This document shows, piece by piece, positions 24,901-45,900 of a stretch of 64,000 nt of DNA. A program made the position numbers and the translations under genes. The DNA comes from Amphiscolops sp. MND2022. Its lineage: Eukaryota. Position 1 is the first letter of the stretch, and every line of letters begins with the position of its first letter. The stretch is taken from assembly GCA_964187785.1 (NCBI GenBank), contig OZ076409.1, positions 53,632,001 through 53,696,000 on the forward strand, in the 5' to 3' direction. The notes under the pieces are model-generated. The model saw only the letters and a program-made list of their open reading frames with translations, was not told the origin of the DNA and ran no database searches.

Positions 24901-27900
24901 TTGTCAAAAACATTCCGTTGTAACATTAAAACGTTTTCCGTTCTGTAGGTTTCTTACGACGTACTGTGAAGTGCGTTGGTTGATTAAAAATGGTTTTTCT
25001 TATTTAGATTTCTGGTGCATGCGCTCTGCGCTGGTGATTTTTATGTACGAGTTTAATCAAGAAAAGAAATATAATTCTCAATTCACTTTCGATTTACTTT
25101 CTGAAGTAATTACGTGAGTTCGATCAGAATAATTATAAGTCTCAATTATAGTCTATTTTGTGAACTTTTAGTTCACTTCTTGTCTAATTTCTAATTCCAA
25201 ATCTAAAAGTAGTCTCGTACTTAAAATTTTCGCGACTGTGCCTTCCTACACTTCAACAAAGTTCGTCTCAGGTGTGAGTTCGGATGGAAGGACTTTATTT
25301 CTACGACCCGGGAGAAAAGTGTATTTTGGTCTATGAATATGTAAATTGAATCTTTCTTTATTTAGATTAAAGTTGTAATAAATGTCACTCATACAAAAGC
25401 AAAGTGCACAAATCAGCATGAATAGAAAGAAAATAATTAAATCAAATCTAAAATCTATCTTTGAATAATACGAGTTAAGTTAGTTAGAAAGAAAGTAAGT
25501 TATTAAGTTGTTTTTGTGTTTTACCAGATCAAGAGGTGAAGCCTCTTTATAAGATGCAGCGATAGCTTGCAAGGTGTTTATAGTCCACTAATTGTCACGG
25601 ACTGAAAAGAGAGCTACTTGCTTCTCTTGATTAAAGAACAACAGATTGTTGTACTGGTTTTATAGAGTGCTATACAGCTACTCTTTGTCTCAGATTGAGA
25701 ACTGTTCGACTTGAAGAGTCAAACAAAAACTAAGTTATTTAAGTCTCTTATAACCCAGCTAAAGCTGTGGTTCTTGGTTTAGAGTCAGTATATCTACCAG
25801 ACTTTGGTTTAGAGTCTACTATAAAGCAGAGACTATTCAATCTTTGTTAAACAAAGACGGTATGATAGCTTCTGTTCGAAGTCAAAAGTCAATTAGAACT
25901 CCAACGTAAGAGAAGATTTGCTTTAACGATGAAAGCAGATTTTTGTTTTGTTTTAGATTGAAAATATTATAAGACTAAGACTTAGCTTGCCTTTACTTGA
26001 AGGCAGATTTGAAAATAGTTAAAGATTTAAATTGCTTCAATATTGAAGCAGAGTTAAAATGCTTAAGACTTAACTTGTTTTGGCTCGAAAATATTCTAAG
26101 ATAAAATTGCTTCACTCGAAGCAGAGTTGGAAATCGTCTAAGACAAAATTGCTTTAACTAGAAAGCAGGCTTGACAAAAGTTTAAGATAAAATTGCTTCA
26201 CTTGAAGCAGAGTTGAAAATCGTCTAAGACAAAATTGCTTTAACTAGAAAGCAGGCTTAACAAAAGTTTAAGATAAAATTGCTTCACTTGAAGCAGAGTT
26301 GAAAATCGTCTAAGACAAAAATTGCTTTAACTAGAAAGCAGGCTTGACAAAAGTTTAAGATAAAATTGCTTCACTTGAAGCAGAGTTGAAAATCGTCTAA
26401 GACAAAAATTGCTTTAACTAGAAAGCAGGCTTGACAAAAGTTTAAGATAAAATTGCTTCACTTGAAGCAGAGTTGAAAATCGTTTAAGACAAAACTGAGC
26501 CAAAACTTGTAAAACTTTAAGAAGGTTTAAAACTTAGGCAAAAAGCACAAAGACTAAAATGAGTTAAAGTTAAAGTTAAGAAAAATATCTTAGAAAAATG
26601 AAAGCTCCAAAAAGAAAATTGAAATGGTTTAACTAACAAATGTTGCGCCGCGCTGAAGATGGGGATTGAACCCGTGAATGGAGATTGTAGAGTTGAAGAT
26701 GAGTGATTTATCAATTTAGTATTTTGCCAAAGGAAGAGCTCTGAGAGTTGAAAATTTGGTCTGCTTTTATACTAAATTTGACCGCTTCGTCAACCAATAA
26801 AATTGAATCACTGCTGTGATTGGTTGACGAGCATGACGTCATATGACGTCAAGTCATATGATCTGACAAACGAGATCATTTTGTATGTGTATTTCGTGGG
26901 CGAAGCGTCCACGAGAAAATGATGTCATTTGACGTCATGACCAAATATGGAATGTAACCAGCGTCGCTGGACAAAGGGAGTGAACACGTTCGAGCGTGTT
27001 CAGAATTCAGAGCTGAGTGAGAAAATAACAAAGATAAAACTGCGTAAGTCACAAAAGATAAAACTACATGTTACAAGTTTTGAGTTTATTTCTTTTTGGG
27101 TTATCGTAGTAAGTTTCTTTCTTTTTATTTGCCATAAGTCGCACACGACATCTCACCCGGGTTTCAAGATTGAAGAAATTGTAACGGGGGTACACAGGTT
27201 GTTGGCGTTCATGTTGATTCTTCTAGGTTAACTTCGATGAACATAGTGTCATTCAGAATGAATGGGGAGTTGCTTTTGAAGAGCTGGCTGTGTGGGATCA
27301 GGAAGGGGAAGCATATGCTCGGGTTCCCATAGCTTGTACAAGGTCGTATAAAACAAGCTGAATTTTGGTTATCTTTCGGGTCTACTATTTTAGTACAGGT
27401 ATCATTAGGCTCACTCAAATTGATTACATTAATTCGGAAGATTAATTTGAAAGGCCAAGAGAGAATTGGGTCGAACTCGCCAGGAAGGATGTTAATAACT
27501 AGTGAAGCACTCTCTCCAGTAGCAGGAGAGCATCCATAAGGATAGAGTTTCATATCAAAGCGATACCCATGAGTTGATGTGTAGAATGGAGGGCTGTGAA
27601 AATTACAAGGTATTTTTGGGTGCGGGTCGACGCCTTTTTGCCTTTCTAGTTCTGCAGCCTTTGCGTTATCAAACATAAGGCTGAAGGAGTTAATTCTCCA
27701 GATTAGCTTTTTGTCTCGTCCACAATCAATGCTGTGAATACGATCATAGAGATCCATTGTTAGGCGTTTGAGGGGTTTCAGTTCAGCAAGTCGTCGTTGT
27801 ATATCTGTTGATTCGGGTTCGGTTGAAGAAGGGGTAAGAAGAGGAGTATTTACAGGTTGTTCAACAGTAGATGTTATTATCTTCTTTTGAAGGTCTTCGA

Positions 27901-42900: not shown

Positions 42901-45900
42901 CAATCTTTGTTAAACAAAGACGGTATGATAGCTTCTGTTCGAAGTCAAAAGTCAATTAGAACTCCAACGTAAGAGAAGATTTGCTTTAACGATGAAAGCA
43001 GATTTTTGTTTTGTTTTAGATTGAAAATATTATAAGACTAAGACTTAGCTTGCCTTTACTTGAAGGCAGATTTGAAAATAGTTAAAGATTTAAATTGCTT
43101 CAATATTGAAGCAGAGTTAAAATGCTTAAGACTTAACTTGTTTTGGCTCGAAAATATTCTAAGATAAAATTGCTTCACTCGAAGCAGAGTTGGAAATCGT
43201 CTAAGACAAAATTGCTTTAACTAGAAAGCAGGCTTGACAAAAGTTTAAGATAAAATTGCTTCACTTGAAGCAGAGTTGAAAATCGTCTAAGACAAAATTG
43301 CTTTAACTAGAAAGCAGGCTTAACAAAAGTTTAAGATAAAATTGCTTCACTTGAAGCAGAGTTGAAAATCGTCTAAGACAAAAATTGCTTTAACTAGAAA
43401 GCAGGCTTGACAAAAGTTTAAGATAAAATTGCTTCACTTGAAGCAGAGTTGAAAATCGTCTAAGACAAAAATTGCTTTAACTAGAAAGCAGGCTTGACAA
43501 AAGTTTAAGATAAAATTGCTTCACTTGAAGCAGAGTTGAAAATCGTTTAAGACAAAACTGAGCCAAAACTTGTAAAACTTTAAGAAGGTTTAAAACTTAG
43601 GCAAAAAGCACAAAGACTAAAATGAGTTAAAGTTAAAGTTAAGAAAAATATCTTAGAAAAATGAAAGCTCCAAAAAGAAAATTGAAATGGTTTAACTAAC
43701 AAATGTTGCGCCGCGCTGAAGATGGGGATTGAACCCGTGAATGGAGATTGTAGAGTTGAAGATGAGTGATTTATCAATTTAGTATTTTGCCAAAGGAAGA
43801 GCTCTGAGAGTTGAAAATTTGGTCTGCTTTTATACTAAATTTGACCGCTTCGTCAACCAATAAAATTGAATCACTGCTGTGATTGGTTGACGAGCATGAC
43901 GTCATATGACGTCAAGTCATATGATCTGACAAACGAGATCATTTTGTATGTGTATTTCGTGGGCGAAGCGTCCACGAGAAAATGATGTCATTTGACGTCA
44001 TGACCAAATATGGAATGTAACCAGCGTCGCTGGACAAAGGGAGTGAACACGTTCGAGCGTGTTCAGAATTCAGAGCTGAGTGAGAAAATAACAAAGATAA
44101 AACTGCGTAAGTCACAAAAGATAAAACTACATGTTACAAGTTTTGAGTTTATTTCTTTTTGGGTTATCGTAGTAAGTTTCTTTCTTTTTATTTGCCATAA
44201 GTCGCACACGACAGTACGTTGCGCGATGATCTATTGATTCATTTTTGGAAGTACGAAAGGAACTATCTGAGCCAAAGGTCTCAAAAGTTTCAGATTTCAC
44301 ATGATCTGTAATGATGTAGTCAATGAGTGTTCTTGATTGATTTTGTACTTTGGTAGGGTGATCTTTATTCATGACATTGAGGCCATACGGTGTCACAATG
44401 GTTCCCAAACATTCTCTTTCTCTTTTGTCGAAGTAATTTATACTATAGTCGTCCATGAGCACTAATGGTTCTTTTCTCAGTAATGACATAATCGATGCTG
44501 GTTGATAATTCCTTTAGGAATCTATTGTCATGCTTTTTCTGTGGATTAACATGGAAACAAAGATCTCAATCTGCTCTCTTCATAATTTTTTGACACTACG
44601 TGACTGTTCTGATGTTCCCTTGTAAAACTTTTGAGATTTTGGAGCCCTCAGCGATGTGCCGTCTTAGGTTCACTCAAAGTGAAAATGTAAAAAATGTTTT
44701 ATTAGACTAAAAGTCTGTGCAAAGTGAGTCATTGAGATACATCCTGGAGAAAAACTAAACACTGTGATAGTAGGGCACATTTTGTAAAAATGCCTTGACT
44801 AAAAGCAAATCACATTCGGCAATTCTTCTGGGCGTTTTTAGTCGGCGCTTCATGAAGTGAAATGCGACTATTGTAGTGACTTTTTTTTCAATTCACACGA
44901 ACTTACCAAAATAGTTCCTAAAAGTTCTACTACAAAATTTTTTGGTCCCAAATTGAATCATTTGGCCTAGCGAACTGAACCTACAAGATTTGTCCTCTTT
45001 TGCCGCGTAACATACCATACCGGGAGAGACTAAAGGGTCCCCCCTTTCAGTTTTTTCGGCATTGAGACTTTTATTTCGAAAAAAAATGGATCACCCTTCA
45101 ATTTTTTGATGTTTTGCGACAGAATGGATGTTGAAAAATCCCAAAAGGTCTCCCCTTTCAGTTTTTTTCGGCATTGTGACTTTTTCTCGAAATTTTTTTC
45201 ACCCTTCAATTTTTTGATGTTTCGGAACAATGGATGTTAAAAAATGCGAAAAGATCCTCTTTCTAGCGTGCCAGTTCCGTCGTTTGGGCTTTTCGTGAGT
45301 TTGATACTTTGAGTTTTTTGACACTTTCATGTCCTTTTGCTATTTTTGAGCCTTAGATATGGCGCCGACTTATGCCGTTCCCGGCTTGTTTCTTTGCATA
45401 ACACCATGTGTATTATGCTTCGACTATAGGCGATGATGAATTTGTTCAGTGCGGCTTTTAAAGAGCAGTATTTTATGAAAATATGTGTCTGATTGAACGG
45501 AAAAACAAAAAATTTGTTTGAGCGTAAACACTTACTTTTATAGTCTTCGGTCGGCTATCACCTGGTGTTGGTGGTTGCTGCATGGGCACGGCACTTGGGG
45601 GTGCAACGGATCCAAAGTGTTTGGGAGGGGCATTCATCCCTGGAATTACCTGAGGGGGAATAGTCGGCTTACTTCTCCCCATGAGCCCCAACAGTACTGC
45701 TTCCTTCTTCAATTCGATTAACCTTCTCTGCAACTGCATTTTCTCATCTGCGTTTTTATCCGTGAGTAACTCTAACTCTGCATCTAGCAGTTCCTTTTGC
45801 GTTTCCTGTTTATGTTTCTGCAAAGGTGATGATGATAACAATTTGGCAGCCGGAGGAGGTTTCGGTGGAACGACAGGTTTCGGTTTTGCCGCATTCAACA

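Follow-up and report, generated by a model that had tools for sequence, protein, structure and literature searches.

The subject of this analysis is a 19.2-kb element in the genome of Amphiscolops sp. MND2022 (GenBank assembly GCA_964187785.1), which can be read with good confidence as a full-length and very recent provirus of a multi-copy, recently active, env-carrying Ty3/gypsy (Metaviridae-type) family, one that has a ‘complex’ genome and would work by the mechanism proposed below. It occupies positions 24965-44213, minus strand, of a 64,000-nucleotide stretch of contig OZ076409.1 (positions 53,632,001 to 53,696,000 of the forward strand; this whole stretch is called the window, and its coordinates are used throughout). 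The coding content of the element comprises 11 open reading frames (ORFs), all on the minus strand, where a first-pass annotation of the same DNA had counted about ten genes. In addition to gag, pol and env, these ORFs include two leader micro-ORFs, a cluster of small accessory ORFs, a 153-aa ORF and a TRAF-like gene; Pol contains a macrodomain, and an array of predicted hairpins precedes env.

A complete, recently inserted element and its family

The element is bounded by two long terminal repeats (LTRs) of 2186 bp each, 24965-27150 and 42028-44213, whose identity stops sharply at both ends; the first-pass annotation had seen no difference between them by eye, and their alignment gave 0 mismatches over the full 2186 bp. 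The LTRs have TG..CA termini, and GTAC stands directly outside both element ends as a 4-bp target-site duplication (TSD). Since every long ORF between the two LTRs is on the minus strand, the element reads from right to left, which makes 44213-42028 the 5' LTR and 27150-24965 the 3' LTR. Its G+C content (37.5%) resembles that of the flanks. The identical LTRs, the TSD and the open ORFs uphold the earlier reading of a young, complete and unusually large Ty3/gypsy-type element with intact gag, pol and env.

Repeats this large can be mis-assembled, and the family has many near-identical copies, so the apparent youth of the element might reflect collapsed or copied repeats in the assembly. This explanation is exceedingly improbable given that the TSD is exact, that the window is free of N and that nine copies at other loci have LTR pairs of their own which are 99.5-99.95% identical.

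The size of the family was estimated by searching the genome (1.07 Gb in 1929 contigs), with all copy counts being lower bounds. The LTR gave at least 62 matches, including, among the matches listed, 18 pairs spaced 16.6-17.4 kb apart; the TRAF-like ORF gave at least 123 at 80-100% identity, of which 98 were without an internal stop and 25 had one or two; and the macrodomain in pol gave at least 150, many of them in open pol frames of 1853 codons. The family has at least 120-150 copies in this genome.

Ten sister copies, picked for divergence and not at random, were compared with the window element. LTR pairs were present in all ten and were 99.5-99.95% identical in nine and 96.4% identical in one, so the family has been recently active, as had been proposed from the window alone, while LTR identity between subfamilies was 76-93%. 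Gene order was identical in 10/10 copies. Full-length ORFs were found in 10/10 copies for the 132-aa ORF and each leader micro-ORF, in 9/10 for pol, the TRAF-like gene and the 71-aa ORF, in 8/10 for gag and in 7/10 for env and the 153-aa ORF; the 106-aa ORF was full length in 9/10, one of these copies having a hybrid of two paralogues. The ratio of non-synonymous to synonymous substitution rates (dN/dS; Nei-Gojobori, mean over all pairs, for ten of the eleven ORFs, among subfamilies with dS of 0.15-0.63) ran from 0.04 for env to 0.29 for micro-ORF 2, with paralogue-1 of the small ORFs at 0.19 and the other values given with the features below. In the most divergent pair for each gene, the deficit of non-synonymous changes had a one-sided Fisher p of 5e-3 to 1e-309. 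The ten ORFs tested are under purifying selection.

Host gene fragments do get captured by LTR retrotransposons, and the TRAF-C and OARD1-like domains of this element are of cellular type, so the accessory genes might be passengers that were captured once and have no function for the element. This proposal is already largely refuted, and we regard it as highly improbable, since the same order is kept in ten sister copies at dS of up to 0.63 with dN/dS of 0.05-0.29, since a family with an env of only 57% identity has a TRAF-like gene in the same place, and since Pol relatives of another species share the macrodomain. One-off capture, which the first-pass annotation had named as the outcome that would count against it, is thus replaced by a set of genes that are integral to the element, their order and purifying selection extending over all or nearly all of the ten copies.

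Coding content and regulatory sequences

The features of the element are as follows, in its own 5' to 3' direction:

44214-44217, no strand: target-site duplication GTAC, right, directly after 44213
42028-44213, minus: 5' LTR, 2186 bp, identical to 24965-27150
42007-42024, minus: primer-binding site (PBS), separated from the 5' LTR by 3 nt; its 18 nt are complementary to the 3' end of a host tRNA-Met(CAT), CCA included
41855-41995, minus: leader micro-ORF 1, 46 aa, paralogue of micro-ORF 2; 40-46 aa in the sister copies
41706-41858, minus: leader micro-ORF 2, 50 aa, also 50 aa in all sister copies; dN/dS 0.29
40391-41656, minus: gag, 421 aa, one CCHC knuckle and an N/Q-rich tail; dN/dS 0.06
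40397-40403, minus: candidate slippery heptamer TTTAAAC (T TTA AAC in the gag frame), 6 nt before the gag stop
34884-40343, minus: pol, 1819 aa from the first ATG, frame open for 1853 codons; dN/dS 0.05
Pol domains, minus: protease (PR) 40029-40298, macrodomain 39093-39515, reverse transcriptase (RT) 38055-38429, RNase H 37473-37868, integrase (IN) 35418-36560
33342-34883, minus: variable spacer after pol, about 1.5 kb, with no conserved ORF; 44-84% identity to the sister copies in 100-nt bins
33126-33341, minus: 71-aa ORF directly upstream of the small-ORF cluster, 69-71 aa in the nine sister copies that have it at full length; dN/dS 0.07
32914-33123, minus: 69-aa ORF, a shortened version of a 106-117-aa paralogue in the sister copies
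32449-32769, minus: 106-aa small ORF; dN/dS 0.21
31911-32309, minus: 132-aa small ORF, distant paralogue of the 69- and 106-aa ORFs; dN/dS 0.15
31083-31832, minus: five-unit RNA array, units of 112-167 nt, coordinates from covariance model R1
28682-30817, minus: env, 711 aa, N-terminal signal-like helix and C-terminal membrane helix; dN/dS 0.04
28194-28655, minus: 153-aa ORF, 26 nt after env, 153 aa in seven sister copies; dN/dS 0.10
27209-28186, minus: TRAF-like ORF, 325 aa, N-terminal coiled coil plus TRAF-C/MATH; dN/dS 0.13
27151-27158, minus: candidate polypurine tract, short and purine-rich, GGGTGAGA in element orientation, adjoining the 3' LTR and recognised by its letters
24965-27150, minus: 3' LTR, 2186 bp, TG..CA, identical to 42028-44213
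26097-26494, also 43160-43557, minus: 87-bp tandem array inside each LTR, 4.6 units, 98% matches (TRF)
24961-24964, no strand: target-site duplication GTAC, left, directly before 24965

Pol has the order PR-RT-RNase H-IN that is found in Ty3/gypsy (Metaviridae), with DTG in the protease and YLDD in RT. Pfam placed an aspartic protease at residues 16-103, RVT_1 at 639-763, RT_RNaseH at 826-957, Integrase_H2C2 at 1262-1317, rve at 1337-1432 and Integrase_p58_C at 1610-1642. Among solved structures, the RT-RNase H region came closest to Ty3 (8e-34), followed by foamy virus (4e-21), a caulimovirus-type polyprotein (3e-20) and a gammaretrovirus (2e-11), a ranking by E-value and not by phylogeny; the nearest named relatives of Pol are only ~28% identical. 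Gag scored 24.0 bits against Retrotrans_gag (PF03732), just below the cut-off of 24.1. By frame arithmetic, pol lies in the -1 frame relative to gag and is open from upstream of TTTAAAC, and the obvious reading of this arrangement is that Gag-Pol would be made by a -1 frameshift at that heptamer.

The region between the protease and RT domains of Pol contains the macrodomain that had been noted in the first reading of the sequence, and it is in frame. About 140 residues match OARD1/TARG1 (PDB 2lgr/4j5q) with an E of 4e-24 (query 28-168 against chain 19-157), while the Pfam Macro model reached an E of 0.0011 on Pol, a score below its cut-off. In the PDB alignment the TK and GCGLD motifs are identical to those of human OARD1/TARG1, whose catalytic Lys and Asp we take to be K84 and D125 of the human protein. 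By its sequence, the domain is of the OARD1/TARG1 type. The VTK and GCGLD motifs are kept in the family of the window element; both are also kept in four of eight aligned relatives from other genomes, while the other four have a degenerate motif. Macrodomain matches were found in 9/90 Pol relatives from the protein collection. One Pol relative, P0004, has nothing above 65% identity in the genome of the window and must therefore come from another species. Pol relatives of another species also carry the macrodomain. No published description of a macrodomain inside a Gypsy Pol was found in the literature searched.

The env product matched PF24664, the Monjiviricetes fusion glycoprotein, with 136.4 bits against a cut-off of 27, and of its 221 relatives all those listed carry the same domain. 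An AlphaFold model built from 30 natural relatives reached moderate confidence (mean predicted local distance difference test, pLDDT, 62.5), and its best Foldseek matches were all to herpesvirus glycoprotein B (gB), with that of herpes simplex virus 1 at E 2e-12 and probability 1.0, but TM-scores of only 0.15-0.2. Env is taken to be a class-III (gB-like) fusogen. A scan of viral contigs with env found no relative. An env relative that is 65% identical (P0120) and a TRAF-like relative (P0440) each lie on a 6672-nt contig, and the env cluster of another relative (P0225) recurs on contigs of 11.8-14.5 kb in many records; these contigs are hints of linked genes, possibly assembled full-length transcripts, in other organisms. 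The relatives of Pol, the TRAF-like protein and Env come almost exclusively from ENA assemblies.

The TRAF-like ORF begins 7 nt after the 153-aa ORF and ends 58 nt before the 3' LTR. The N-terminal half of its product is heptad-rich, and Pfam recognised PF21355 (TRAF-mep_MATH, 1.4e-22) and PF22486 (2.4e-20). Against the PDB, TRAF5 was matched at 1e-14, the TRAF-C part aligned to TRAF1-6, and TRAF3 (8zuk) could be aligned with residues 12-322, the coiled coil included. The TRAF gene of the first-pass annotation is thus substantiated as a coiled-coil plus TRAF-C ORF that is full length in nine sister copies. RING and zf-TRAF had no Pfam match in the 325-aa ORF, and its frame is open for only 59 codons further upstream. 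A RING and TRAF zinc fingers are present in TRAF2-7 and absent in TRAF1, and the domain content of the element's protein resembles TRAF1 or a truncated TRAF. A word-based search with the ORF returned its own family only (27 matches), while an exhaustive search returned 2042 proteins at E <= 0.001, the nearest non-self ones at 38-39% identity. The PF21355 scan of the genome gave at least 150 matches, of which all those listed are apparently multi-copy, with host TRAF paralogues inseparable from element copies. A second abundant TRAF-MATH class, with frames of 257 codons, is spread over many chromosomes (for example, C7:40095538-40095900 and C2:59348284-59348646); it lies outside both families examined here and probably belongs to another element family.

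The remaining ORFs encode small proteins. The two leader micro-ORFs overlap by ATGA, and each consists of an EDPDY motif followed by a hydrophobic helix; their presence as a paralogous pair in all ten sister copies agrees with the transmembrane micro-ORFs described in the leader by the first-pass annotation. Its tandem accessory ORFs held up in part: four small ORFs do form a cluster, in which those of 69, 106 and 132 aa are paralogous, the ORF at 32914-33123 is shortened in this copy, and another at 34116-34436, considered as a gene, was rejected because it has no conserved counterpart in the sister copies. The spacer in which this rejected ORF lies (33342-34883) is the most variable part of the element, and subfamilies differ in the short ORFs they have there (131 aa in copy I; 54 aa in copies C, D, E and H). 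Alignment of the 132-aa and 106-aa ORFs gave 17-23% identity. The AlphaFold2 model of the 106-aa protein (pLDDT 74.8) consists of beta strands and one helix, and its best structural matches, the SAS-6 head domain in Foldseek (E 0.04) and a VIA Z of 5.6, are both within noise, so that no convincing neighbour was found by either search. Neither the 132-aa nor the 153-aa ORF had a usable match in Pfam, PHROGs, PDB or Atlas. The selection on them shows that the proteins of the small-ORF family, the 153-aa product and the leader membrane peptides have a function.

A divergent family in the same genome, represented by locus L039, provides a further view of this arrangement. The 10 kb downstream of its pol contain three small ORFs (73, 131 and 114 aa), followed by an env that is 57% identical to that of the window and then by a 300-aa ORF with a coiled coil and a MATH domain at the same 3' position, which is 21% identical to the window's TRAF-like protein (E 2e-12). 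The order of small ORFs, env and TRAF-like gene in L039 indicates that the arrangement is old. Against the small-protein profile, one of the L039 small ORFs gave a weak alignment (E 0.009) and another gave none, and the 10-kb stretch examined is without a 153-aa ORF. Between the two families, the TRAF-like protein has evolved far faster than Env (21% versus 57% identity). A 214-aa Ser/Ala-rich ORF lies antisense in the post-pol spacer of L039 (1287-1931, minus) and is possibly spurious. The pol of L039 is one of a group of further intact pol frames in this genome, of 1849, 1854 and 1860 codons (for example, C13:10848269-10853722, C6:42939168-42944639 and C7:65363973-65369438), which were found in the search with P0004 and suggest that at least three more related families are present.

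Several sequences that would serve transcription and priming can be recognised. A T-arm and acceptor stem ending in sequence complementary to the PBS occur at nine genomic sites, one of which is a 73-nt tRNA-Met gene with anticodon cat (ARAGORN), and the 12-nt core of the PBS is kept in 10/10 sister copies; ARAGORN found no tRNA in the window. In LTR coordinates and element orientation, a CCAAT lies at 328, TATAAAA at 380, a second TATA at 1487 and AATAAA at 1789 and 1852, positions that were read from the sequence and whose promoter role is putative. The first TATA is closely preceded, at LTR coordinates 200-330, by several TGACGTCA palindromes, which are CRE-like, and by a CCAAT box. With use of the first TATA, the R region would be ~1.4 kb long and take in the 87-bp array, as against ~0.3 kb with use of the second. 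Each 87-bp unit can form two short hairpins, and the folding of this array (z = -2.1, 2/100 shuffles equally stable) is less clear than that of the array upstream of env.

In the flanks, other reverse-transcriptase ORFs lie at 52251-54125 and 57730-58245, both on the plus strand (RVT_1 at 7e-30 and 5e-11), and these fragments place the insertion in repeat-rich DNA. A flanking ORF at 46450-47100 (minus) has a weak RRM match.

The hairpin array upstream of env

Each of the five units of the array consists of hairpin A, with 8 bp and a conserved 29-nt loop, an invariant TATAAATAACTCC linker, hairpin B, with 8 bp, a variable interior and a nested small hairpin, and hairpin C, with 5 bp and a U-rich loop. 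The three helices were predicted by RNAalifold from 41 distinct unit sequences of the window and sister copies. In this alignment 98.7% of 861 cells are paired, and compensatory changes on both sides are present at 8/21 pairs; none of 500 shuffles reached the observed pairing or covariation score, and controls with slid partners had only 20-47% of cells paired. The array also folds more stably than shuffled sequence (z = -3.85, with 0/20 as stable), and its region is 85-99% identical among subfamilies versus 44-84% for the post-pol spacer. The structured RNA that the first-pass annotation had pointed to therefore takes the form of five three-hairpin units with covariation beyond 500 shuffles. 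Over the element, Rfam gave 0 matches at E <= 1, and covariance model R1 recovered only the five source units and nothing in L039.

The hairpins might instead function in DNA, as tandem TATA-box promoter or enhancer modules with dyad protein-binding sites that drive a subgenomic transcript for env, the 153-aa ORF and the TRAF-like gene. We consider this doubtful, though it has to be weighed seriously, since several observations count against a role in RNA. For example, TATAAATA is nearly invariant in all units of the array, and the repeat of L039 consists, by eye, of a hairpin, then TATAAAAT..AACCTCC, then two hairpins; together, TATAAATA in the array and TATAAAAT after a hairpin in the unrelated repeat of a divergent family mean that a promoter role at the DNA level may hold, and dyad symmetry could be a dimer-binding site. 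In addition, the number of pairs with double changes is not above that of the shuffles (239/500), and the compensatory changes fall mostly between the five paralogous unit classes, with ~8-10 independent events. What favours RNA over a DNA palindrome is that one-sided changes stay paired as G-U on the sense strand, to which such pairs and changes are confined, with one pair being U-G in 41/41 rows. The stems also vary by compensatory substitutions while the loops are invariant, and the stability relative to shuffles stands on the same side.

The L039 repeat (3200-3690) comprises three ~180-nt tandem units before env whose sequence is unlike that of the window array and whose layout is similar. 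By eye, each long unit of the window array also has UAAC, a pyrimidine tract and a conserved YAG|AUCAC, and a polypyrimidine-AG stands before units 1 and 4; from these motifs, a function as splice acceptors is possible.

Relation to known elements and proposed function

Intact multi-copy Ty3/gypsy elements with F-type or gB-type env have been described across metazoan phyla as ‘errantiviruses’ in a wide sense (Chary & Hayashi, eLife 2026, PMC13524379). As they are presented in the available text of that paper, the gB-type elements, the ‘ancient errantivirus’ group, share with the window element the GAG-POL-ENV order, a Ty3/gypsy Pol, a gB-like env, near-identical intact copies and a tRNA PBS, a likeness of features and not of position in a Pol tree; they differ in that the element analysed here has ~8 further conserved ORFs, a macrodomain in Pol, RNA arrays and a length of 19.2 kb. 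The words ‘accessory’, ‘macro’ and ‘TRAF’ do not occur in the available main text, the 12-nt PBS string is not in the element table, and five motif strings had 0 matches in the supplements, with cells covered to 400 characters (PMC13524379). The suggestion of an undescribed lineage has to be withdrawn in that form, since the backbone is already catalogued as a gB-type env Ty3/gypsy (PMC13524379). Errantiviruses in the narrow sense (the Drosophila gypsy group) have an env homologous to the F-type glycoprotein of baculoviruses and paramyxoviruses, and the element was set apart from them by an env with PF24664 and a gB fold. Troyka was also considered and rejected because of its CG..CG termini and 3-bp TSDs, as given in the part of its description at hand (PMC12440569).

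A TRAF-C domain in a giant Gypsy element likewise has a precedent. The planarian Burro/GYPSM1 elements carry MATH_TRAF_C together with BIR, BCL2-like, ankyrin, SUMO-like and dUTPase domains (Arkhipova & Yushenova, 2019, PMC6431247). In the portions of that account used here, Burro exceeds 30 kb, and its gag, env and pol are fused in this order and in one frame into a single polyprotein of ~4,900 aa; the env is mononegavirus-like, interference with host apoptosis and ubiquitin pathways is proposed, and in Dugesia tigrina an ORF of its own encodes the TRAF domain (PMC6431247). The window element resembles Burro, as described there, in encoding a MATH_TRAF_C domain (here PF21355 and PF22486) and an env of the type of mononegavirus glycoproteins, and by the same description is unlike it in having gag, pol and env as separate genes with env after pol; no macrodomain is reported for Burro in those portions, in contrast to the one in Pol here. 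Burro is the closest precedent for the idea of TRAF capture, and its architecture differs. BIR, BCL2-like, ankyrin, SUMO-like and dUTPase domains were all absent from the Pfam scans of the window element.

Capture of an env of this kind is also reportedly known from Anakin, a mosquito BEL-Pao element with a captured chuvirus glycoprotein that is said to have been described by Dezordi et al. in 2020. A follow-up paper describes chuvirus-glycoprotein capture in a BEL-Pao element and found none that was clear among Gypsy elements (PMC10084718). To the extent covered there, Anakin and the window element are alike as LTR retroelements with an env of the Monjiviricetes/Jingchuvirales family and differ in Pol, which is BEL-Pao in one and Ty3/gypsy in the other, and in accessory genes, none of which are described for Anakin. 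Macro-domain ORFs are present in fish epsilon-like endogenous retroviruses (Basta et al., 2009, as cited in the accessible part of PMC4977317). As cited there, these too are retroviral elements with a macro domain; they differ from the window element in being vertebrate Retroviridae with the domain in an additional ORF, whereas here it is in frame in a Metaviridae-type Pol, between PR and RT. Within the limits of the literature searched, with Repbase and Dfam outside it, the backbone and the capture of TRAF are known, and the Pol macrodomain, the eleven-ORF layout, the leader peptides and the RNA array appear undescribed.

The mechanism proposed for the element can be laid out from its parts. 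The genomic RNA would start in the 5' LTR and be primed by tRNA-Met, and Gag-Pol would arise by -1 frameshifting at UUUAAAC. The hairpin array may be a cis-element in the sense RNA for making or exporting the 3' mRNAs (env, 153-aa and TRAF-like) and could act as the binding site for a protein of the virus or the host, or else direct splicing. Env would be responsible for entry from cell to cell or into the germline. In coronaviruses, alphaviruses and hepatitis E virus, macrodomains reverse antiviral ADP-ribosylation, and by functional analogy with these unrelated viruses the macrodomain of Pol might strip the ADP-ribose marks of host poly(ADP-ribose) polymerases (PARPs) from viral or host factors. 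Similarly, RING-less TRAF1 and dominant-negative TRAF truncations can be seen as TRAF-domain decoys, a functional analogy from which the RING-less coiled-coil plus TRAF-C protein may be predicted to trimerise and serve as a decoy or adaptor. Such a protein would occupy the TRAF-binding motifs of host receptors or adaptors and, being unable to ubiquitinate, could dampen TRAF-dependent innate signalling or cell death.

Several points tell against carrying this account too far. The roles of the macrodomain and the TRAF-like protein are argued by analogy, and the ‘immune-modulating gene set’ of the first-pass annotation goes beyond its basis, which is domain identity. The transcription start, poly(A) site, splice pattern and translation of the small ORFs are predictions from genomic sequence. 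The env model is mediocre (pLDDT 62.5, TM-scores 0.15-0.2). Selection among copies reflects function during replication of the element, from which infectivity does not follow, and the fast evolution of the TRAF-like protein fits an arms race but also fits weak constraint over most of the protein.

The element could also be a purely intracellular retrotransposon whose env and accessory genes serve transposition in germline or stem cells rather than spread or immune antagonism; for example, a restriction factor could be trafficked or degraded with the TRAF-like protein as adaptor, and the target of the macrodomain could be ADP-ribosylation in DNA repair at integration sites. The evidence is all genomic and concerns vertical copies, PARP-dependent ADP-ribosylation is central to the signalling of DNA breaks, which integration triggers, and MATH domains are also substrate adaptors outside immunity. 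We nevertheless judge this reading unlikely, somewhat more so than a DNA-level role of the array, because env is the most constrained gene of the element and is complete in 7/10 sister copies, which is hard to explain without membrane fusion; the argument is that so low a dN/dS implies that membrane fusion is needed for propagation.

If the provirus and the proposed mechanism are taken at their furthest reach, this Metaviridae lineage might independently have arrived at a ‘complex retrovirus’ grade while still active, with its own antagonists of innate immunity, a family of small regulatory proteins, viroporin-like leader peptides and, before env, a multimerised structured RNA that would govern how the 3' mRNAs are expressed or exported, as Rev/RRE (Rev response element) or a constitutive transport element (CTE) does in vertebrate retroviruses. 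This is a tentative proposal that we hold to be possible rather than probable, and in it the antagonists would be a RING-less TRAF decoy that counters TRAF-dependent signalling or cell death and an ADP-ribosylhydrolase in Pol that opposes PARP-type restriction.

The possession of accessory genes against host defence is regarded as a hallmark of the complex retroviruses of vertebrates. In this Ty3/gypsy-type element, purifying selection maintains ~8 additional ORFs and two immune-type domains of host origin, in >100 copies and in several families, which makes it a tractable case for how retroelements gain and retain host-manipulating genes. Its products are candidates for natural inhibition, in a non-vertebrate host, of pathways that depend on ADP-ribosylation or on TRAFs, and they may serve as a pointer to the host pathways that restrict such elements. 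In addition, TRAF-C genes in this genome have been amplified mainly by these elements, which matters for its annotation and for counts of immune-gene families.

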